A stretch of DNA of 42,574 bases from a virus (IMGVR_UViG_2675903468_000002:1-42574); one strand, 5' to 3'; positions 1,940 to 42,574 are shown, counted from the stretch's first letter. The notes: generated by a model from the letters alone, not told the origin. Numbers and translations: made by a program.

Positions 1940-2539
1940 TCAGAATTTATAACCAACACCCACGATGAACCCGTCAGTGCGCCAGTCACCACTGCCGGAG
2001 CCTTCATAAGCGACATCAATGGCCACGGATTCGGTCGGGTTAAACTGCACGCCAGCTCCCCACGCCAGAGACGTGTTGCTGTGGCGACCGTCATCACTTC
2101 CGGTCAGCACATCGTGCTTTTTCCCCTTGTTGTCAGTTACGCGGAGATAATCCCCGGAGAAAGTCGACACACGGCTGTAAGCCACACCCGCCATCGCATA
2201 CGCGCTGAACCATTCATTCACGCGCACAGACGGCCCCGCCATTACGCTGAACCAGCGGTTACGAACGGAATCTTCATGCCAGCGGGTATCGCTGTAACGG
2301 GTAATCTGGCGATTCTTGTCTCCTGCATAGCTGAACGACGTCACCATCCCCAGTGTGTCCGTAAACTCATAACGGTATTTCACGTTAATCCCGTTCAGAT
2401 CATCACTGCCGGGAACGTTCGTCCGGGCATGAAGATACCCCGCGCTCAGCGTGGACTGATGTTCAGACGCCCATGCAGGCGCACCGGATACGGCCAGACA
2501 AATGGCTGCGGACAAAATGGCGGCATAAAGTTTACGCAT
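1940..2539 (-). CDS. lom: Outer membrane protein Lom (Ail/Lom family)
   Basis: 199 aa with signal peptide [24 protein letters not shown] and beta-barrel-like alternating pattern; position between J and stf as in lambda. Confidence 0.9.
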
Positions 2540-2605
2540 AATTACCTCTCGCTTTTCTGCAATAAAAAAGGCGTCATTTCTGACGCCCGTTCTGGGTTAT
2601 AAAAT

Positions 2606-6007
<3,402 letters not shown>

Positions 6008-19557: not shown

Positions 19558-21477
19558 TTATCCTCCACTCAGAGCAGCCGCGATTTCTTCAATAGTCATT
19601 TCATCGTCGTCCTGTTCATCTCTTCTGGCGCGGGCCAGTGCATCCAGATCCAGTTGCCACCGCTGAACGGAAATGCGCAGCGCTGCATAGGCATACACCA
19701 GACAGTCCAGAGCTTCATTACGCCGTTTTCTGGCATCCCACTGGAGTTTCACCCGCCCGTTCACAACTTTTTCAACCAGCTCTTCTGCCACGAGTTGTTT
19801 AGCTTCAACATCAGAAAAAATGTCCGGGTTATCCGGAAAACGGAAGGTATACGGTGCGACTTCACTGGCAGATACCACCGGCAGGGCAAAACGCGCATAC
19901 AGCATTTCCTTGACGGTATCGGAACCCACCTCACACAAAAACACCCCACGCTGGTTTCGCTTTTTTGGCATGGTGATCACCGGCTTGCCGTACACCGACG
20001 CCCCTTTGATGGGGAGCACAAAAAAAGTGCCGTGTTTTCTGGATCGCTGATACACAATGTCCTGGTCAATACCACCGGTATCCCAGCAGACGCGGGAAAT
20101 GGAAATTTCAGTGCCATCTGCATGACGGTATTTTTTCCGGATCACGGCATCAACGCGTTTAAGGGTGTCCTCATCTTCCGGTCTCCCCATGATGATCTGC
20201 TTGTCAATCAGAAAAGCTTCTTCGCCAGGAGCCCAGCCCCAGACATAAATCTCATAACGGTTTTTCTGAGAGTCGATCCCTGCGGTCAGGTAAACCACCC
20301 GCAGGGGAACCTGCGCATCATAGTGGCAGACTTTTTCCAGCAATAACTCAAAGCTCAGTTTTTCTGCCACAGCCTCTTCATAAGGCTCCCCCAGCGTGGT
20401 GTTAATGAACGTCTTGACGCCATTCGGATCCTTCAGTGCATCAAGCCAGTCATAAACAATCTGTACCCAGGTGGTGAACGGGCTGTATGCCGTCCAGATG
20501 TGGTACGAGATTGAGCGCGGTGGCGGGATTTCCTCATCACCGGCGCTGTAAAATGTCAGACCGTCACGCGTCCACATCCCGGTATTGTCACAAATCCACC
20601 GCCCGTCGGTCTGGTCAAGTTCCGACTGACGGATCGCGCAGCCATTATGTTCACACAGGTAATACACCGTCTCCGGCTTGCCCTTCTCCCATTTCAGGCC
20701 AAAGGTTGTCGCATCATCGCCAAACTTCAGATACTGGGCTTCACCACAATGAGGGCATGGCACATAAAACCGCATAAAATGTGCAGATTCGTTCGCGGCT
20801 TTTTCAATCTGGCAAAAACCTTTAATTTTGGGCGTTGAGCCGCGTATGGATTTAGGCCATACCGAACCTTCGATACGCTTATCGCCAAGCAGAGTTGGTG
20901 AACCTTCTTTTTCCACATCCGGTTCAAACGAGGAGAGTTCGTCATAGCAGACCACATCCACAGATTTTTCACGGTAGTTTTTGGCAGCAGCTCCGCCCAG
21001 ACACCAGAATCCCACACCGGAGGAGAAACGTTTCAGGGTAAGCGTGTTGTCCCGATGTTTTCTGCCAAACCACGGAGCCAGCTCCAGTAATACAGGAACG
21101 TCTCTTATCGTTGGTTCGACATGGGATTTCATAAAATCTTCTGCCGCAGAATCTGTCGGCTGAAAAAGCAGGCTGTTACGGGATTTGTGTTCAATAAAAT
21201 AAGCCTCCACCCCCAACAGCATTTTGGTGTAACCAACACGCGCCGATTTAATCAGATTAACGGTGCGGATCCGGTCATTCCCCATGCTGTTCATGATGGC
21301 AACCTGAAACGGCAGTGTTTCCCATTGCCCGGGAGTATATGAAGACTCTTTTGGCAGATAATAATGCTGATCAGCCCACTGAACTGTCGTCAGTGGTACC
21401 GGAATATTGAGAGATACAAGCCCTGTTGCTATCGCACCGGCTGCATTAGCTGCCTTCTGTGCGTCTGAAATCATCAA
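19558..21477 (-). CDS. A: Terminase large subunit A
   Basis: 639 aa; [39 protein letters not shown] and the rest match lambda gpA along the whole length. Confidence 0.95.
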
Positions 21478-34933: not shown

Positions 34934-35143
34934 TCAATCCGCGTTTTCGCGCTGATTCCAGTCATGAACAGCACGTTCTTTCGAATCAGGGATCTGGTTT
35001 GCGTTACAGCAAGTACATGCGACGTAATAACCATCATCGCCATCCAGAAAATATTTCACCTCAATGAGTTGTACTTCCGGATTTCCGCAGAACGGGCAAG
35101 GTTTCAGATCGACATCACCAGTTACACACGTCTTGGTTTGCAT
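34934..35143 (-). CDS. Small zinc-ribbon protein, Lar-like restriction-alleviation family candidate
   Basis: 69 aa with CPFCG...CTCC cysteine motif; TAATG overlap with the upstream antirepressor gene suggests translational coupling. Confidence 0.5.
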   Translation of the reverse strand: MQTKTCVTGDVDLKPCPFCGNPEVQLIEVKYFLDGDDGYYVACTCCNANQIPDSKERAVHDWNQRENAD

Positions 35144-36003
35144 TATTTGTTCTCCTGTAAAAGATTCGCGAGCTCAGTGTTATGGGTAAACAGCCCATCC
35201 CATGTTTTCTTCATCGGTAGTTCACCGTTCAGATAATGGCGATATAACCAGGCGGCACCTTTTTTCTTCAGGAGTGGTTTGAAAATCTCGCGCATTTCCC
35301 CGTTTTCCTGCTCAACCTGCCCAGAACGCTCAGTCAGGTATTGGTCACGTGCATACGCTTTTACACGCCAGCGCGGATACATAGCCTCCGGACGGTCGTC
35401 ATACAGCCAGTTACGCTCTTCAAGGAACGCATTAATCTGACGAGTGTTTACACCGTTGAGTTGTTTGCAGAACTGCACAGGAGTGATGCCATCGGCGAGA
35501 TGGCTTTCGAGTTTGCTGATGTAGCGAGCCTGACGCTCTGCATACCCGAGAGCAAGGCGTTCGGATTTTTTGGCTTCAATCCACGCTTCAGCAGCAGCGA
35601 TCGGATCGTCAAAGTCTGGAATAGTGTTTGAAGAAGGCGTTGCTTTACGAAAATACGCCTGCTCCATTTTTTCGAAGAACGACCAGGCCTCGTCTGTATC
35701 GACGATTTTTGACATGCGGGCAGCGCCGCGTTCTGTCCAGAGAGTGAGTGAACGCGCATTTCTTCCAACAGAGTGACCAATAGTCACTCTGTCCTTAAAT
35801 GCTTTCAGGGCATCACCAGTTAAAAGAAAATAATGTTTCCCATCTTCAAAGCGCTCAAGATTGCGCGACAGATTTTTACGGATATTAGCTTCATCCGTGC
35901 CATATCCCGCCGCCAGCGTTTCAGTGGTAACTACGCGTACCCCCTGCCACTCAATCACTGGCAGGTTTTCAGGGTTGACTAATTTTTGTTTATTGATCAT
36001 CAT
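35143..36003 (-). CDS. Antirepressor-like protein (ORF6N/Bro-N-type N-terminal domain, KilA-C-like C-terminus)
   Basis: 286 aa; N-terminal LPVIEWQGVRVVTTETLAAGYGTDEANIRKNLSRNLERFEDGKHYF resembles phage antirepressor N-domains. Confidence 0.6.
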   Translation of the reverse strand: MMINKQKLVNPENLPVIEWQGVRVVTTETLAAGYGTDEANIRKNLSRNLERFEDGKHYFLLTGDALKAFKDRVTIGHSVGRNARSLTLWTERGAARMSKIVDTDEAWSFFEKMEQAYFRKATPSSNTIPDFDDPIAAAEAWIEAKKSERLALGYAERQARYISKLESHLADGITPVQFCKQLNGVNTRQINAFLEERNWLYDDRPEAMYPRWRVKAYARDQYLTERSGQVEQENGEMREIFKPLLKKKGAAWLYRHYLNGELPMKKTWDGLFTHNTELANLLQENK

Positions 36004-36078
36004 GAAATCCCCTTACTAATCAGAATAAGTCGGGCTGACGGAGTGCGGCCCGGCTTTTCTTTTTCGTTCAGTAACCGT

Positions 36079-36378
36079 TCATCGCGTGGACATTTCTGAT
36101 GAATCACTCTGCCCATCTTCCGTGCGCGCTAGGCTTGGATTTGAAATTTTGCGTAACGAATCAGGAATTCCATCTTCAGGGTGAGGATAAAGATCTGGCC
36201 TTAAGCCATGTGGCGTGACCTTCCATGCAACTACTTCACATACGCGTAAAACAAAACGAGCAGGAATTGTGTTTTTTGAAAACCACTGATTCACCGCTTG
36301 CGGAGTTACACCAAGGTTTCGTGCAATGGCATTTTGCGCAATTAATGCGCGAAGTACGTCGTAATCATTTCCTTTCAT
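36079..36378 (-). CDS. Cro-like HTH regulator (first gene of the rightward early operon)
   Basis: 99 aa; HTH LRALIAQNAIARNLGVTPQAVNQWF; divergent from the cI-like gene across a 133-bp operator region. Confidence 0.65.
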   Translation of the reverse strand: MKGNDYDVLRALIAQNAIARNLGVTPQAVNQWFSKNTIPARFVLRVCEVVAWKVTPHGLRPDLYPHPEDGIPDSLRKISNPSLARTEDGQSDSSEMSTR

Positions 36379-36511
36379 AGCAAAACACCAATATTAACTT
36401 GATAACACAAGAATATATCAAGATTAAATTAACATGCAAGTTGCAAAAGGATCGAATACACTAAAATCAAGTAAAGATTTATCCTTGTAAAGAAACCCAC
36501 AGGACCTGGTC
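36379..36511. promoter_or_regulatory. Immunity operator/promoter region (OR-like) with divergent promoters
   Basis: Minus-strand promoter TTGCAT-16-TATATT; plus-strand candidate TTGCAA-15-TAAAAT; inverted repeats built on CTTGAT/ATCAAG half-sites (for example CTTGATAACACAAGAATATATCAAG). Confidence 0.5.
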
Positions 36512-37201
36512 ATGAAGAACGTCAAAAACACGGAAAATCGAATAGCCGCGATGCTGAAAGCAAAAGGATGGACTCAGGCTCAACTGGCCCGCAAGTTAGG
36601 TGTGAGTGCGCAATCAGTGCAGTACTGGACAACAGGAAAAACATTTCCACGGAGTGATAAGCTCGCGCATTTATCAGAGATTAGCGGTTATCCACAATCC
36701 TGGTTCTTAGGTGAAGACTCCTCACCAACCTTTTCCTCGCAAGAGAAACACCAGACAAGAACAGATAGCGTCGTGTTTAATGTCCTTGATGTTGAGTTTA
36801 GTTGCGGTGATGGAACTCATGTCCGTGGTGACTTGATAGATGTAGTGCGCTCAATAGAACTTGATCCTGAATATGCCCGACGTCTTGTTGGAAATCGGGC
36901 ATTCAAAAATATAGAAATAGGTAACGCCAGAGGAGACAGTATGGCTCCCACAATCTCACCTGGCGACCTTCTTTTTCTTGATAAGACAGTAACTTATTTT
37001 GATGGCGATGGTATTTATGCATTTTGTTTTGATGGAGAATGCTACGTGAAAAGGCTTCAAAAAATTGGAAGCAAAATCATGGTGTTATCTGATAACCCCA
37101 ATTATCAACCATGGAGCATCGAAAAAGAGGGGTTAGCTCTGCTTTATATCCAGTCTAAAGTGATCTCATCAGTACCATTCAACATAAACAGATTTGGTTA
37201 G
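36512..37201 (+). CDS. cI: CI-type prophage repressor (HTH plus LexA-like S24 autopeptidase domain)
   Basis: 229 aa; HTH GWTQAQLARKLGVSAQSVQYWTTGK; C-terminal S24 domain with GDSMAPTISPGDLLFLDK and downstream Lys. Confidence 0.85.
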   Translation: MKNVKNTENRIAAMLKAKGWTQAQLARKLGVSAQSVQYWTTGKTFPRSDKLAHLSEISGYPQSWFLGEDSSPTFSSQEKHQTRTDSVVFNVLDVEFSCGDGTHVRGDLIDVVRSIELDPEYARRLVGNRAFKNIEIGNARGDSMAPTISPGDLLFLDKTVTYFDGDGIYAFCFDGECYVKRLQKIGSKIMVLSDNPNYQPWSIEKEGLALLYIQSKVISSVPFNINRFG

Positions 37202-37212
37202 TCTTTGATTTT

Positions 37213-37236
37213 AACGGGCTTTGCCCGTTTTTTTCT
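37213..37236 (+). terminator. Intrinsic terminator after the repressor gene
   Basis: AACGGGC-TTT-GCCCGTT followed by TTTTTTT. Confidence 0.7.
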
Positions 37237-37264
37237 GCCTGAAATATACGATATCAATTTTTTC

Positions 37265-37293
37265 TTGACAGCCTATTTCCCAAAGCATAATAT
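37265..37293 (+). promoter_or_regulatory. PL-like early-left promoter with operator-like palindrome
   Basis: TTGACA-17 nt-TAATAT; flanked by ATCAAT and the ATCAATTATAACTTGAT palindrome sharing half-sites with the OR region. Confidence 0.5.
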
Positions 37294-37346
37294 CGCACCA
37301 TCAATTATAACTTGATTTAATTCAATTTAAAATTGTTGGTGGATAT

Positions 37347-37799
37347 ATGAAGACACTAAAAGCAACTCCAGAAACAACTAATTTTATCAACTGCGGCTGT
37401 GTTACGCTTAAGGGCTTAGAACTTGATTCCTTTGCATTAAATATTGCAAATTTGCTAAGTGCTGTACGCACATTCCATCTTCTGGATTGTGCTCGCTCAA
37501 AGGAACTGGGCATTGAGGTAATGGAATTTATCCATGAATATGCTCTATCTGCTGCTTCTCCTGCACAACAAAAACAATCCTTCCCTGAAAGCTGGCTGGT
37601 TAACCTTCGCACCCAACGCGAAGCCTGCGGCTTAACAACAGCCGAACTCGCCAGGCTGCTCGCTCTTGATGAAGAAATCATCATCCAGTGGGAGAGCGGA
37701 GAGTATGAACCAACCATCAGTATGCTTATCCCACTGGCAAATATTCTTGGCTGCGATCCGATGTGGTTATTGACTGGTAGCAATGCTGCAAAGGAGTAA
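37347..37799 (+). CDS. HTH (XRE-type) protein with N-terminal domain of unknown function; first gene of early-left operon
   Basis: 150 aa; C-terminal HTH CGLTTAELARLLALDEEIIIQWESGEYEPT; not Arg-rich and not N-like. Confidence 0.6.
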   Translation: MKTLKATPETTNFINCGCVTLKGLELDSFALNIANLLSAVRTFHLLDCARSKELGIEVMEFIHEYALSAASPAQQKQSFPESWLVNLRTQREACGLTTAELARLLALDEEIIIQWESGEYEPTISMLIPLANILGCDPMWLLTGSNAAKE

Positions 37800-37804
37800 C
37801 AGCA

Positions 37805-37996
37805 GTGAATAGTAATATCCATGACAATTTCGAAGGTATTTGTCTGGCATCGGATTCATTTGCAATAAACATTCATAGTCTGTTGTGCGCTGCGCAAGTT
37901 TTACAGATGTCAAATAATCAGAATGCAAAAACATTAGGTGATGAAATCCTGTCTTTTGCATGTGAATATTCGAAAGCTGCAGTCAAAAAGAATTAG
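37805..37996 (+). CDS. Small protein paralogous to the N-terminal domain of the preceding HTH protein
   Basis: 63 aa; GTG start 8 nt after an AAGGAG RBS that overlaps the upstream stop; shares DSFA-NI, LL, K-LG-E, F--EY pattern with residues ~25-70 of the upstream protein. Confidence 0.5.
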   Translation: MNSNIHDNFEGICLASDSFAINIHSLLCAAQVLQMSNNQNAKTLGDEILSFACEYSKAAVKKN

Positions 37997-38073
37997 CGCA
38001 ATAACAATAAATATTCACTGAATGTTTATTACGGTTTTATCGCCGGGGATTGTTGCAACCTTTATTCGCAGGA

Positions 38074-38187
38074 GATTATGTTATGACTTTCCTGAAACAT
38101 AAGGCATCGTATAAAACTGCCTGCCTCATTGCACAACATGGAGATTCTTATCTTCATATAGCCAACCTGTATTTGCGCAAAGCATAT
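38074..38187 (+). CDS. Very small ORF (37 aa), hypothetical
   Basis: AGGAGA RBS then ATG; MTFLKHKASYKTACLIAQHGDSYLHIANLYLRKAYGR. Confidence 0.3.
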
Positions 38188-38200
38188 GGGAGATAAATAA

Positions 38201-38389
38201 ATGAAAGAAAAACAACAAAACATAACACATAAAAAAGTAAGAGTGTTGCTAACCATTGAAAATGGTGAAGTAATTTACTCAAAACATCTGTTGGATAATG
38301 AATTCGTTGGCTGCATGGATACATTTCTGTGGATGGCAAAAAGAGCTGGCTACACGATTATTCCACCAGCAAAGGAGCAAACATTATGA
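38201..38389 (+). CDS. Small hypothetical protein
   Basis: 62 aa with GGGAGA RBS; AT-rich. Confidence 0.4.
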   Translation: MKEKQQNITHKKVRVLLTIENGEVIYSKHLLDNEFVGCMDTFLWMAKRAGYTIIPPAKEQTL

Positions 38390-38967
38390 ATCATTCAGAG
38401 TTCCGACCAGAAGTTACGCCACATGGCATAAAAATTGGCAATACAACCATTGATTATGTTGAGGCCGTACAGCGGCTTAATGATGGTGAATACGATTATC
38501 CAAACTCACACGGTTTAAGAATCATGCAATGTATTGCAGAAGCCGATGATGCAGGGTTGCTGGGACGATTTTCAGTCGATATGAAGGTTGCTCAGTGGCG
38601 ATGGCTGTATGTGACTACGTTTATAAATGAAGAGGAAGACAAGAACGGTACCGTTGATATCCCTAACGATAACGGAACTACAGATCACGCGGTTATTTAC
38701 AAGGGTAAACATGGTTGCCTGAGTATCTACCCCGGACCACTTCGTATTGCCCTGCAAAACCACGTCGAATGGGGATTTATTGAAAAATATGGCGAAGCTG
38801 AAGGCATGGGGCGAGTTCTGTTTCTCTATCAAAAAATGCTCATCGCAGATCCTGATAATGGTTTCATTATTTCTGCTATGGGGCGCGAAGGGCTTGAACT
38901 CCTTCTGGATGAAATGATGAACGACCTGAATACTCATGGTATGCCAGAAGCGCCAGTGACACATTAA
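38386..38967 (+). CDS. Hypothetical protein (193 aa), no recognisable motif
   Basis: Start MNHSEFRPEVTPHG with AAGGAG RBS overlapping the upstream stop; the longer ORF-track start at 38329 lacks an RBS. Confidence 0.55.
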   Translation: MNHSEFRPEVTPHGIKIGNTTIDYVEAVQRLNDGEYDYPNSHGLRIMQCIAEADDAGLLGRFSVDMKVAQWRWLYVTTFINEEEDKNGTVDIPNDNGTTDHAVIYKGKHGCLSIYPGPLRIALQNHVEWGFIEKYGEAEGMGRVLFLYQKMLIADPDNGFIISAMGREGLELLLDEMMNDLNTHGMPEAPVTH

Positions 38968-39012
38968 ATATTAAGAAGAATATAATTCTTCCATCTTTTA
39001 CCAACCGTTTAT

Positions 39013-39120
39013 ATGAAAAGCAACCGTGAATTAAACAGAGTAAAACTGATTTTAATCCTTGCCACAGTACTGACACTAACTGAAATCATTATTCTCTTTC
39101 TTGCGCTGTCAGTCGGTTAA
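39013..39120 (+). CDS. Small membrane peptide (35 aa), hypothetical
   Basis: MKSNRELNRVKLILILATVLTLTEIIILFLALSVG; single TM helix. Confidence 0.3.
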   Translation: MKSNRELNRVKLILILATVLTLTEIIILFLALSVG

Positions 39121-39143
39121 AAATATCGGGATACCACAGACCA

Positions 39144-39332
39144 ATGAGACTGTATTTCACAATAGTAATTTTACTGGCAATTATCGCATGCATTTACGGA
39201 TTACTCGTTCCGTTCCTTATATCCATGAAGGATACGATAGCAGTTATTTCTGGCTTTGCACTGGCGTTTCTGACCCCGCCCTGCATTTATGCCATTTACA
39301 AGGGTCTTTCTTTCGCTAAGGATAAAAGATGA
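39144..39332 (+). CDS. Small two-TM membrane protein coupled to the SPFH gene
   Basis: 62 aa, MRLYFTIVILLAIIACIYGLLVPFLISM...; stop overlaps the SPFH start (ATGA). Confidence 0.5.
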   Translation: MRLYFTIVILLAIIACIYGLLVPFLISMKDTIAVISGFALAFLTPPCIYAIYKGLSFAKDKR

Positions 39333-40156
39333 AAAAAATTATTTTTGCTTTAGCCATTGTTCTGCCGACTATTGGCCTTGTCGGTTGCGATCGCGTTGAA
39401 CCAGGTAATGTTGGCATCAAGGTAAATAAACTGGGCGACGACAAAGGCGTCGGTGAGGTGGTCGGTGTTGGTCGCTACTGGACTGGCTGGAATACTGAAG
39501 TTTATATCTTCCCCACCTTCAAACAAATGAAGACCTACGATGAACCGTTCAGTTTCCAGATGAGTGACGGTACAACCATCGGCTATCACATTGGCGTGGC
39601 CTACAAAGTTGATCCATCCAAAGTTACCACGGTGTTTCAGACCTACCGCAAAGGCGTGGATGACATTACCGACACTGACCTGCGCCAGAAGATCGCCGAC
39701 GCACTCAACCGACTGGCCAGCAAAATGACCACTGACAAATTTATCGACGGCGGCAAGTCTGAGCTGCTGGATGAAGCTCTTAAAGACATTCAGGCAGAGA
39801 TGACACCTATCGGTATTCAGGTAATGAGCCTCTCATATGTGGGTAAGCCGGAGTACCCGCCAACCGTTATCGACAGCATTAATGCCAAAGTCACGGCAAA
39901 CCAGAAAACCCTGCAGCGCGAGCAGGAAGTCAAGCAACGTGAAGCGGAGGCCAACATGCTACGTGCGGAAGCTGCCGGACAGGCTGATGCCATTCGAACA
40001 AAAGCCCAGGCAGAAGCCGATGCCATTCGTTTACGCGGCGAAGCTCTACGCCAGAACCCAGGCGTCATGGAGCTGGAAGCCATCAACAAGTGGAACGGTA
40101 CACTGCCGCAATACATGACCAGTGGTGCCAATACACCATTTATCCAGATTAAATAA
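39329..40156 (+). CDS. SPFH/band-7 (prohibitin/HflKC-like) domain lipoprotein
   Basis: 275 aa; lipobox LVGC after signal peptide; SPFH-like core followed by Ala/Glu/Arg-rich coiled coil (REQEVKQREAEANMLRAEAAGQADAIRTKAQAEADAIRLRGEA). Confidence 0.7.
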   Translation: MKKIIFALAIVLPTIGLVGCDRVEPGNVGIKVNKLGDDKGVGEVVGVGRYWTGWNTEVYIFPTFKQMKTYDEPFSFQMSDGTTIGYHIGVAYKVDPSKVTTVFQTYRKGVDDITDTDLRQKIADALNRLASKMTTDKFIDGGKSELLDEALKDIQAEMTPIGIQVMSLSYVGKPEYPPTVIDSINAKVTANQKTLQREQEVKQREAEANMLRAEAAGQADAIRTKAQAEADAIRLRGEALRQNPGVMELEAINKWNGTLPQYMTSGANTPFIQIK

Positions 40157-40196
40157 CTTATATGCCCGGCAGGCCGCCGGGCTAAGGGAAATGCAG

Positions 40197-40568
40197 ATGA
40201 ACACCCAGAATACTCAACCGCAAATAATGAACTATGACCCGAATCTGACGTCATGCGGACGCATGGCAAAACAAACCGTTCGATTAACTTTCGGACTATG
40301 GGAATACCGCGAAACATTCGAAGTTACTGTCGGCGGCAATCTGACCGGACTGGATGTTATCAGTTGCGCTATTGAAAGCCTGTACGCAACGCTACCTTAT
40401 GAAGAAGTCGAGGATGAGCGCACAGGGGAAACAGATATCATGGCCACCATTAATATTGGCGAACTGATATGTCAGGATGAAGACCTGTCCGGAGAACTCT
40501 GGCTTGCCGGGATGCTTATCTCAGCAGAAATTATCAGTATTGAACCCGCTACAAACATACGGCTCTGA
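40197..40568 (+). CDS. Hypothetical acidic protein (123 aa)
   Basis: Start chosen at second ATG, 7 nt after AAGGGAA; no recognisable motif. Confidence 0.5.
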   Translation: MNTQNTQPQIMNYDPNLTSCGRMAKQTVRLTFGLWEYRETFEVTVGGNLTGLDVISCAIESLYATLPYEEVEDERTGETDIMATINIGELICQDEDLSGELWLAGMLISAEIISIEPATNIRL

Positions 40569-40599
40569 AGTTCTCACTATTCAGAGAGCAGGAGAAAAA

Positions 40600-40842
40600 A
40601 TGTTTGCTTTGATTAATCAGGGACAACTGTATACCGACAGTGCCGGTTACCCGGTAAAAATTATTCGCTGTATAAATAACACCGTGTTGTACAGAAGAAT
40701 GGATGGGCGAACACAATCGGTAAAAATGAACGATTTTAATGAATCGTTTGAACGGATCGATCACCAGGAATACCGACAAATTCTGGCAGAAACAGAGCAG
40801 GAAGCTCATCTGAAAAAATTACGAGCCATGAAAAGGAAGTAG
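40600..40842 (+). CDS. Small hypothetical protein (80 aa)
   Basis: AGGAGA RBS; MFALINQGQLYTDSAGYPVKIIRC... Confidence 0.5.
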   Translation: MFALINQGQLYTDSAGYPVKIIRCINNTVLYRRMDGRTQSVKMNDFNESFERIDHQEYRQILAETEQEAHLKKLRAMKRK

Positions 40843-40845
40843 CGA

Positions 40846-40992
40846 ATGAATAAAGCGTTTGAGCTATGGGTACGCCAGCGTTACGGCAATCGTTATGACC
40901 TGACGCGAGATGTTGACGGTTTCTACTGCCGTGAAGTTGTGAAACGAATGTTTGAGGTGTGGTGCCACTGCCGTGGGCTGAAAGTTTTATGA
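40846..40992 (+). CDS. Very small ORF (48 aa), hypothetical
   Basis: Starts 4 nt after upstream stop; MNKAFELWVRQRYGNRYDLTRDVDGFYCREVVKRMFEVWCHCRGLKVL. Confidence 0.3.
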   Translation: MNKAFELWVRQRYGNRYDLTRDVDGFYCREVVKRMFEVWCHCRGLKVL

Positions 40993-40999
40993 GGTTGAC

Positions 41000-41254
41000 A
41001 TGCAGACAATCATCTATCAAATAACACCAAGTAAATGGTGTACAGAAAGCACCCTCATTGCTTCGACAGGGCTAAAACCAGGCACCATTGAGCGAGCCAG
41101 GAAAAAATCATGGCTACAGGGGAAAGAATATCGACATTACGCTGTCGATGGAATTCCGAAGAGCAACAGTGAATGCGTATACAACATAGAGGAAATTATG
41201 CGCTGGATCGAAAATCAGAAACAACCAGGTGTTAAAAATGCAAGTTCCGGTTAA
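41000..41254 (+). CDS. xis: Excisionase-like protein
   Basis: 84-aa basic protein immediately upstream of and co-oriented with the integrase; GAGG RBS. Confidence 0.5.
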   Translation: MQTIIYQITPSKWCTESTLIASTGLKPGTIERARKKSWLQGKEYRHYAVDGIPKSNSECVYNIEEIMRWIENQKQPGVKNASSG

Positions 41255-41287
41255 CCTGTTAATGCTCCTGGACGTCTGGGAGGTTTA

Positions 41288-42574
41288 ATGAGTAATACAT
41301 CATACCCAACAGGCGTTGAAAATCATGGCGGATCACTCCGCATATGGTTTCACTATAACGGCAAACGTGTCAGAGAAAACCTCGGTGTTCCTGACACCGC
41401 CAAAAACCGGAAAATCGCAGGTGACCTCCGCACTTCCGTTTGTTTTGCAATCAGAATGGGGAGTTTCGACTATGCAGCACAGTTCCCTGAGTCCCCTAAC
41501 CTGAAACACTTTGGTCTGGGGAAAAGAGAGATAACCATTAAAGCACTTTCGGAAAGATGGCTTGAACTGAAGAAAATAGAGATTTGTGCAAATGCACTTA
41601 ACCGTTACCAGTCAGTAATTAAAAACATGTTGCCAATGTTAGGTGAAAAAAGACTGGTTTCATCTGTAACAAAAGAGGATTTGCTTTTCGTAAGGAGAGA
41701 TCTGTTGACCGGTTATCAAAAGCTTTCTAACGGAAAAATTTCTTCCATAAAAGGACGCTCAGTGGTCACAGTAAACTACTATATGACAACCATAGCTGGA
41801 ATGTTTCAATTTGCAACAGATAATGGTTATACATCAGGAAATCCATTTAACGGTCTGACACCATTAAAAAAGTCCAAGATAGAACCAGATCCCCTCACCC
41901 GTGACGAATTTATTCGTTTTATTGAGGCTTGCCGTCATCAACAAACAAAAAACCTGTGGATTATCGCTGTATACACGGGTATTCGTCACGGGGAGCTGGT
42001 ATCACTGGCCTGGGAAGATATAGACCTTAAAGCGAGGACTATAACCATCCGCCGGAATTATACAAAACTAGGCGAATTCACTCCACCAAAAACTGATGCT
42101 GGTACCGGAAGAACGATTCATCTAGTTCAACCAGCTATTGATGCTCTTAAAAGCCAAGCGGAAATGACCATGCTTGGAAAACAGCATTCTGTAGAGGTAA
42201 AGCAGAGGGAATATGGGAGAAGTACTGTGCATAAATGCACTTTTGTTTTTAGTCCTCAGGTAATAAAACAGCGGCAGTTTTCCGGACCGCACTATAAGGT
42301 TGACTCCATCAGGGAGTCATGGACAAGTATCTTAAAACGCGCAGGTCTGAGACACAGAAAATCGTATCAATCCAGGCATACCTATGCATGCTGGTCACTT
42401 GCCGCAGGAGCTAATCCTAGTTTTATCGCAAGCCAGATGGGCCACACAAACGCACAAATGGTATTCAATGTTTACGGAGCATGGATGAAAGACAACAATC
42501 ACGAACAAATAGAACTTCTTAACAGAAGACTATCTGAAAGTGTCCCATGCATGCCCCATAAGAAAGCGGGGTAA
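41288..42574 (+). CDS. int: Tyrosine-type site-specific integrase
   Basis: 428 aa; catalytic-domain motifs including GIRHGEL (Arg), HxxR-type RHTYACW and the tyrosine in VFNVYGAWM; stop codon is the last 3 nt of the window. Confidence 0.9.
   Translation: MSNTSYPTGVENHGGSLRIWFHYNGKRVRENLGVPDTAKNRKIAGDLRTSVCFAIRMGSFDYAAQFPESPNLKHFGLGKREITIKALSERWLELKKIEICANALNRYQSVIKNMLPMLGEKRLVSSVTKEDLLFVRRDLLTGYQKLSNGKISSIKGRSVVTVNYYMTTIAGMFQFATDNGYTSGNPFNGLTPLKKSKIEPDPLTRDEFIRFIEACRHQQTKNLWIIAVYTGIRHGELVSLAWEDIDLKARTITIRRNYTKLGEFTPPKTDAGTGRTIHLVQPAIDALKSQAEMTMLGKQHSVEVKQREYGRSTVHKCTFVFSPQVIKQRQFSGPHYKVDSIRESWTSILKRAGLRHRKSYQSRHTYACWSLAAGANPSFIASQMGHTNAQMVFNVYGAWMKDNNHEQIELLNRRLSESVPCMPHKKAG

Follow-up and report, generated by a model that had tools for sequence, protein, structure and literature searches.

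Organization of the locus

The DNA analysed here, hereafter the window, is a stretch of 42,574 nucleotides (nt) of viral origin (IMGVR_UViG_2675903468_000002:1-42574), and the element in question is a block of small genes on its + strand, at 38074-40992, located between the repressor gene cI and the integrase gene int. This is the place where lambda has its early-left genes, as an initial annotation of the block had pointed out; the same annotation regarded it as an accessory island of AT-rich open reading frames (ORFs) with no recognisable homology, and as the most likely place in the window for an undescribed exclusion or defence system. The analysis revealed that the block is an ordinary, widely spread early-left operon of a known phage type, whose genes are shared but uncharacterised. 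One part of it is worth an experiment, i.e., the cassette formed by TM62, a small protein with two transmembrane (TM) segments, and an SPFH/Band 7 lipoprotein.

All the ORFs previously listed on the + strand at 38083-40992 are present, and they are followed by xis and int (Table 1). The genes are tightly packed: two ATGA overlaps of 4 nt join p62a to p193 and TM62 to the SPFH gene, gaps of only 3-7 nt precede p63, p62a, p48 and xis, and at most of the starts there is good pairing between the Shine-Dalgarno (SD) and anti-SD sequences, as expected from the translational coupling that had been proposed. For each ORF, a comparison was also made with the equivalent ORFs of 80 related IMG/VR contigs, chosen because their proteins gave the best matches to SPFH. 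Substitutions pile up at the third codon position in 10 of the 11 ORFs (for p193 the counts at positions 1/2/3 are 766/404/1936), and since third-position substitutions dominate, these ORFs are genes and not chance ORFs; together with the tight packing, this bears out the view that the block is a real operon rather than junk. The exception is p35, which is doubtful as a gene because it lacks an SD sequence and shows a non-coding substitution pattern. Therefore, among the short peptides previously proposed as genes, p37, p62a and p48 show a coding-type pattern and p35 is the one in question.

The claim that these ORFs lack recognisable homology does not hold. With the exception of p37, and with p35 being marginal, all of them match PHROGs (E values from 1e-22 to 1e-114); matches to four Pfam families were detected (HTH_3, Band_7, DUF5406 and DUF4222), and the block corresponds to genes L03-L10 of the Stx2e phage phiP27. 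The description as AT-rich is correct in part, given that the GC content of the ORFs starts at 0.35, but the range extends to 0.50, the value of the SPFH gene. The absence of N, cIII, kil, gam, bet and exo was corroborated: none of these genes is present in the RefSeq annotation of the whole prophage, and searches with Pfam, PHROGs and NCBIfam did not assign any ORF of the block to these families.

The region 37200-41300, used as a 4.1-kb query, is 100% identical to the chromosome of Escherichia coli E21845/O/A (NZ_CP076272.1), a human isolate, and ~95% identical to phiP27 across 81% of its length. According to RefSeq, the left end of the window (1 to ~3400) is not phage but host chromosome, with a yehR fragment, yehS, btsR and btsS. 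The prophage is ~39 kb long and includes an HK97-type head, a lambda-type tail, the Q antiterminator, RusA, a DnaB-type helicase and a cro/cI pair; its right end is formed by xis-int adjoining host mlrA. DinI-like and tail-fibre pseudogene fragments are annotated at its host-side left end.

Table 1. Features of the early-left region, with positions in the window (aa, amino acids; substitutions are given for codon positions 1/2/3).
Feature	Position	Strand	Remarks
cI	36512-37201
Intrinsic terminator directly after cI	37213-37229	+	AACGGGCTTTGCCCGTT followed by a T run; in all loci with the same cI type
PL/OL equivalent (predicted)	37253-37316	+	promoter and two flanking 17-mers
HTH150	37347-37799	+	first gene of the operon; C-terminal XRE-type helix-turn-helix (HTH; Pfam HTH_3); PHROG 4836, labelled 'CII-like regulator'
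p63	37805-37996	+	63 aa; PHROG 4587 (E 1.7e-29)
p37	38083-38196	+	37 aa; AGGAG SD; no PHROG or family match; substitutions 100/43/187
p62a	38201-38389	+	62 aa; PHROG 340; alleles of two classes, co-varying with p193
p193	38386-38967	+	193 aa; PHROG 1515
p35	39013-39120	+	hydrophobic 35-aa ORF, doubtful gene; no SD; substitutions 40/14/33
TM62	39144-39332	+	62 aa; two-TM protein, predicted inner-membrane; PHROG 1130
SPFH/Band 7 lipoprotein	39329-40156	+	275 aa; PF01145; PHROG 200
GC-rich hairpin	40164-40182	+	GCCCGGC-AGGCC-GCCGGGC; 7-bp all-GC stem, without a T run; between the SPFH and DUF5406 genes
DUF5406 protein	40197-40568	+	123 aa; PHROG 3409; PF17400
DUF4222 protein	40600-40842	+	80 aa; PHROG 285; PF13973
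p48	40846-40992	+	48 aa; PHROG 3871
xis	41000-41254	+	end of the operon
int	41288-42574	+	end of the operon, next to host mlrA

Promoter, operators and extent of the transcript

Directly after the terminator of cI, which is a strong one, there is a sigma-70 promoter, TTGACA-17-TAATAT (37265-37293), that matches at 10 of 12 positions and is flanked by the 17-mers ATCAATTTTTTCTTGAC (37253) and ATCAATTATAACTTGAT (37300). Allowing 3 mismatches, ATCAATTATAACTTGAT recurs only in the cI-cro intergenic region (OR, 36387-36403), so that 2 matches were found versus 0.17 expected. In the 80 related loci, each immunity type shows a terminator, a TTGACA promoter and its own palindromes at the same position; for instance, the type with a 93% identical cI has the palindrome ATCAATTATATATTGAT, and the type with a 41% identical cI has AAACCGAT...ATCGGTAAACC. 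In sequence terms, 37253-37316 is a promoter of the PL type that is predicted to be repressor-controlled, with putative operators shared with the cI-cro region. It is located ~800 nt upstream of position 38074, beside which the operon had been thought to start, and because of this location the operon also takes in HTH150 and p63.

Terminator-like sites were not detected by a terminator scan of the + strand between 37230 and 41328, and no Rfam families were found across 36000-42574. The simplest reading of this arrangement is a single repressor-controlled transcript of ~5 kb that would end in xis-int and would not need N. Given that the promoter is flanked by operators and lies directly after the cI terminator, the operon should be silent in the lysogen. 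A separate internal promoter for TM62 and the SPFH gene was considered and discarded: the sole match found (9/12) is inside TM62, and in the relatives the cassette directly follows other ORFs.

Other elements were detected within the operon. In the 86-nt gap between p63 and p37 there is a near-perfect palindrome, AATAAATATTCAcTGAATGTTTATT (38007-38031), and a further half-site, CAATAAACATTCA, is found inside p63 (37863-37875); the palindrome may be either a candidate regulator binding site or an AT-rich hairpin. The GC-rich hairpin that follows the SPFH gene was not called an intrinsic terminator by the scan, and a role in RNA processing or stability is conceivable. The product of p63 is paralogous to the N-terminal domain of HTH150 (39% identity, E 3e-9), and its gene is missing from the RefSeq annotation, where the locus tag RS12285 is skipped. 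This stand-alone copy of the non-DNA-binding domain of the regulator, encoded right behind HTH150, could modulate HTH150.

The TM62-SPFH cassette

TM62 and the SPFH gene are paired in every one of the 80 related loci. The SPFH protein belongs to PF01145 (E 3e-31; 109.2 bits versus a cut-off of 23.6; residues 22-208) and shows a lipoprotein signal peptide, MKKIIFALAIVLPTIGLVGC followed by D, with the lipobox LVGC and an Asp residue at position +2. The lipobox conforms to the pattern [LVI][ASTVI][GAS]C with Asp at +2, and its Cys residue is invariant in six distant homologues. The protein also has a coiled coil rich in Ala, Glu and Gln, and a conserved C-terminus, KWNGxLP...PF (KWNGTLPxYM...PF). 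According to the +2 rule of E. coli, a lipoprotein with Asp at this position stays in the inner membrane, and for this reason the SPFH lipoprotein is predicted to be an inner-membrane protein. TM62 is a two-TM hairpin with the motif (V/L)PxL(I/V)SxxD...G. It has no match to a Pfam family at E <= 0.1, and therefore no detectable NfeD domain, by which the possibility that TM62 is an NfeD partner was discarded. A spanin reading of the pair was likewise rejected, since the lysis cassette is elsewhere in the prophage and the lipoprotein is a 275-aa SPFH protein with a predicted inner-membrane location.

The SPFH protein is 83-87% identical across Enterobacterales. Among 53 alleles of its gene, 2061 synonymous versus 186 non-synonymous codon changes were counted, and the neighbouring genes show a ratio of approx. 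1:1. The nearest curated or solved relatives of the protein are HflC and HflK; nevertheless, the scores are more than 100 bits below the equivalog cut-offs of HflC and HflK (TIGR01932, 25.9 versus 134.4 bits; TIGR01933, 23.1 versus 159.4 bits), and the match to HflK in the PDB has an E value of only 4e-4.

The same cassette is found well beyond the lambdoid phages. The SPFH lipoprotein family was detected in 413 phage records, including Ackermannviridae, Vequintavirinae, phiCbK-like, crAss-like, Lak and jumbo phages, as well as in 612 plasmid records; the latter are mostly non-mobilizable and, among the matches listed, of ~92-115 kb, and they include Yersinia pestis plasmids of ~99 and 137 kb. 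In the P2-like phage P88, the TM and SPFH genes form a pair in the early operon. In the P1-like phage RCS47 (stretch examined, 2784-3828) an unannotated two-TM ORF of 78 aa accompanies the SPFH lipoprotein, and the pair fills the slot that tciA-tciB-tciC, which are TerB-like, occupy in the C1-controlled ban operon of P1 (stretch examined, 20234-20930), between upl and the tRNA/ban genes. In phage N4 the cassette is formed by gp19, a membrane protein, and gp20, a lipoprotein (gp18-gp20; stretch examined, 2169-3593); directly ahead of them is gp18, whose annotation reads "superinfection exclusion, similar to P22 gp17". The N4 cassette closely follows the gene for RNA polymerase II (gp16), in what we take to be the middle-gene region. 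The pair was also found in Burkholderia phage Maja and Pseudomonas phage U2, and in E. coli phage 4MG the TM gene is one gene further upstream. In the temperate contexts with readable control, i.e., the lambdoid PL-type operon, the early operon of P2-like phages and the C1-controlled ban operon of P1, the cassette is, judging from these arrangements, in a unit that the repressor shuts off.

No functional study was found in the literature for DUF5406, for N4 gp19 or gp20, or for SPFH proteins in connection with anti-phage activity or superinfection exclusion. In papers on Stx phages the SPFH lipoprotein is named a serine protease of unknown role (PMC8456039), and a paper of 2026 states that it is unclear why phages carry the SPFH lipoprotein (PMC13239085).

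Spread and mosaicism of the block

The phiP27-type early-left region has been in the databases since 2002 (citation in PMC8456039), and relatives of the block sit in Stx phages. Among 5426 complete genomes of E. coli, 1034 match at least part of the block and 65 carry at least 80% of it. As an island it has little weight: it is another phiP27-type copy, which matches in part ~1/5 of these genomes. The order of the genes is kept in the 80 loci while the identity of cI ranges from 21 to 100% and that of int from 28 to 100%. Two slots are swapped among these relatives: that of p193 (and p35) is occupied in ~20 loci by a basic protein of 130 aa (PHROG 1886), and that of DUF5406 is occupied in ~12 loci by an ORF6N/Ant-like protein together with others. 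With regard to the ORF6N/Ant-type genes, which fill the DUF5406 slot of the left operon in other prophages, an anti-repressor gene of this type is located in the window just right of cro (35143-36003, - strand), and a truncated second ORF6N copy is near Q in the late region.

DUF4222 (PF13973; 61.1 bits versus a gathering score of 27) is present in 186 phage records, mostly lambdoid or Stx-type, including phage 21, HK639, SfI and many Stx phages; in the records whose first position is at the int end, it is no more than ~1.5-3 kb away from this end. DUF5406 (PF17400) scored 79.2 bits versus a gathering score of 25, and among its listed homologues only a fragment and a chimeric entry lack PF17400. 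DUF5406 was also located in the early-left operons of prophages of Pseudomonas and Serratia, either after an S24 repressor or ahead of int. The structure predictions that had been proposed gave confident models for DUF5406 (predicted local distance difference test score, 83.8) and for p193, which shows an alpha/beta model, and a fold search with both models did not recover a fold relative. The p193 family is small and confined to the early-left operons of Enterobacterales and Aeromonas phages; in Klebsiella prophages its homologues are in the cI-to-int operon. In the 106-kb Klebsiella phage P12620-1 (stretch examined, 2629-4795), the p193 homologue comes directly after the SPFH gene and overlaps its stop. 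The order of these neighbours is the reverse of that in the window, a hint of a loose association between p193 and SPFH. A toxin-antitoxin reading of p62a/p193 was rejected, since no toxin-antitoxin or defence family was matched and in Klebsiella phages p193 has no p62a-like neighbours. HTH150/p63, p62a/p193, DUF5406, DUF4222 and p48 are interchangeable accessory cassettes, common in early-left operons.

Possible function of the cassette

Gene content, synteny, the placement of the promoter and operators, and distribution were observed directly, and the reading that we favour starts from them. To this reading, taken as a whole, we assign a probability of about 0.55. It proposes that a lambdoid E. 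coli prophage of the phiP27 type has here its delayed-early "left" operon, under repressor control, and that this operon encodes an SPFH scaffold that would face the periplasm and be active in lytic development. The operon would be transcribed from the PL/OL-like promoter through eleven small genes to xis and int. Its fixed core would be TM62 coupled to the lipoprotein, whose SPFH domain, coiled coil and C-terminus would be anchored at the inner membrane and exposed to the periplasm. As SPFH proteins of known structure do, HflK/C among them, the lipoprotein may oligomerise on the periplasmic side of this membrane to form a ring or cage, with TM62 as a built-in client or adaptor of the cage. 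The cassette would act on a conserved membrane function of the host, presumably early in lytic development, i.e., once the prophage is induced or a cell is infected, rather than in the lysogen.

Several observations weigh against this proposal. The lipoprotein resembles HflK/C only weakly (E 4e-4 to 4e-6), and this resemblance may reflect the shared SPFH fold alone. The purifying-selection figure for the SPFH gene is inflated, given that the 80 loci were the best matches to this very protein. The 9/12 promoter match inside TM62 makes a weak internal promoter possible. The label of N4 gp18 suits an exclusion function equally well. Moreover, an SPFH lipoprotein from a prophage of Pasteurella was reported to be a virulence factor borne by outer-membrane vesicles, which points, for at least one case, to a role expressed in the lysogen (PMC9872710).

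If the favoured reading is correct, the role of the scaffold can be divided among three tentative options. Modulation of a conserved quality-control target of the inner membrane, for instance FtsH, in which the cassette would be a protein analogue of HflK/C and of lambda cIII, is one possibility that we place below even odds; general membrane stabilisation, or something else, stands level with it. The exclusion of superinfecting DNA during lytic growth follows slightly behind. A bolder and unlikely version is that TM62 and the SPFH lipoprotein constitute an inner-membrane device shared across phages and directed at a single conserved host target. It would act either as an HflK/C-like cage that captures FtsH, or another machine of the inner membrane, and so reprogrammes membrane proteostasis, or as a widespread, hitherto unrecognised entry block to superinfecting DNA; in that case, the orphan folds p193 and DUF5406 might also contribute to host takeover within the same early programme.

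Another explanation, to which we give no better chances than to this version, is that the block, or just its membrane module, encodes a system of exclusion or anti-phage defence not described so far, which benefits the lysogen and would be comparable to rexAB, sieB and HK97 gp15, located in the same genomic neighbourhood. The position between cI and int and the exchange of gene slots between relatives are consistent with this idea, which was that of the initial annotation. The membrane location of TM62 and the SPFH protein is typical of superinfection exclusion (Sie) proteins, the N4 cassette adjoins gp18, and P1-like phages carry the cassette in exchange for tciABC, annotated as tellurite or colicin resistance. 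Moreover, these genes are uncharacterised, and p193 and DUF5406 are without fold relatives. However, a search against PADLOC-DB v2, a check that had been suggested, gave no match for nine of the proteins, and HTH150 was matched only through its generic HTH (RmrA, capH and similar). An operator-flanked promoter after the cI terminator is expected to be repressed in the lysogen, a convincing internal promoter was not found, and DUF4222 and DUF5406 are generic early-left genes of many prophages. The cassette is also present in strictly lytic phages, and the SPFH gene is under strong purifying and not diversifying selection, a behaviour that is not typical of exclusion and defence genes. Given the repressor-controlled placement, the presence in lytic phages and the strong constraint, both a defence island that functions in the prophage state and an arms-race gene are disfavoured.

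A role in the control of lysogeny is somewhat less probable still. The SPFH lipoprotein would be in this case a mimic of HflK/C that takes the place of lambda cIII; by caging or occupying FtsH from the periplasm, it would stabilise a CII-like regulator, possibly HTH150, as well as Xis, and bias the decision between lysis and lysogeny. That HflC and HflK are the nearest curated or solved relatives, the HflK/C-like predicted topology, with a periplasmic SPFH domain on the inner membrane, and the operon position, which is that of lambda cIII, all argue for such a role. The PHROG label of the first gene of the operon points in the same direction, and the strong constraint suits binding to a highly conserved host protein. 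Nevertheless, the cassette is present in N4, Vequintavirinae, Ackermannviridae, crAss-like and jumbo phages, where there is no lysogeny decision, the equivalog scores fall far short, and a single SPFH gene is found instead of an HflK/HflC pair.

Finally, it is very improbable that the lipoprotein is a surface factor of lysogenic conversion, made by the lysogen, released in outer-membrane vesicles and acting on the animal host: there is a possible precedent in PM0222 of Pasteurella multocida, a prophage HflK/C-like lipoprotein reported to be a TLR1/2 agonist and virulence factor (PMC9872710), the host strain is a human isolate, and relatives of the block occur in Stx phages, but Asp at +2 predicts retention in the inner membrane, the operon is repressor-controlled and the gene is also present in environmental lytic phages.

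The interest of the locus lies in the two-gene cassette, common to lambdoid, P2-like and P1-like phages, to phage-plasmids of SSU5/pMT1 size, to N4 and to large lytic phages that infect several bacterial phyla; it is tightly constrained in sequence and placed in early transcription units. To assign a function to this cassette would improve the annotation of hundreds of phage genomes in one step, and would also displace the misleading "serine protease" label used in papers on Stx phages (PMC8456039).

Comparison with known systems

The closest known system is the early-left region of phiP27 (AJ298298 / NC_003356), in which L03-L10, located between the repressor and xis/int, are the genes of the block in unchanged order. 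Its SPFH protein (L05, "putative serine protease / lipoprotein") is 99.6-100% identical to that of the window; "serine protease" is a legacy label, as the protein matches only Band_7/SPFH. phiP27 differs in that it has its own repressor, xis and int, and two extra ORFs, L08 and L09, that separate the HTH gene from the p62a homologue. With respect to the PL operon of lambda (N, cIII, kil, gam, bet, exo, xis, int), the likeness resides in the position and orientation relative to cI and int, the operator-flanked promoter and the xis-int end. From that list only xis and int are present here and, unlike in lambda, terminator-like sites to be read through were not found.

In N4, gp19 resembles TM62 in being a two-TM protein of ~68 aa that overlaps the start of the SPFH lipoprotein gene. 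The product of gp20 is 62% identical to the window SPFH protein, and keeps the lipobox Cys, FPTFxQ and the C-terminal KWNGTLP...PF; in contrast, this podovirus is strictly lytic, and gp20 has Tyr instead of Asp at +2. The SPFH-NfeD operons (QmcA-YbbJ and YqiK-YqiJ) also show an SPFH gene translationally coupled to a small membrane-protein gene; however, they differ from TM62/SPFH in the gene order and the type of anchor, and TM62 lacks a detectable NfeD domain. HflK and HflC share with the phage protein an SPFH domain followed by a coiled coil and a predicted periplasmic orientation at the inner membrane, but they are two paralogous subunits with N-terminal TM anchors, whereas the phage has a single SPFH gene and a lipid anchor.

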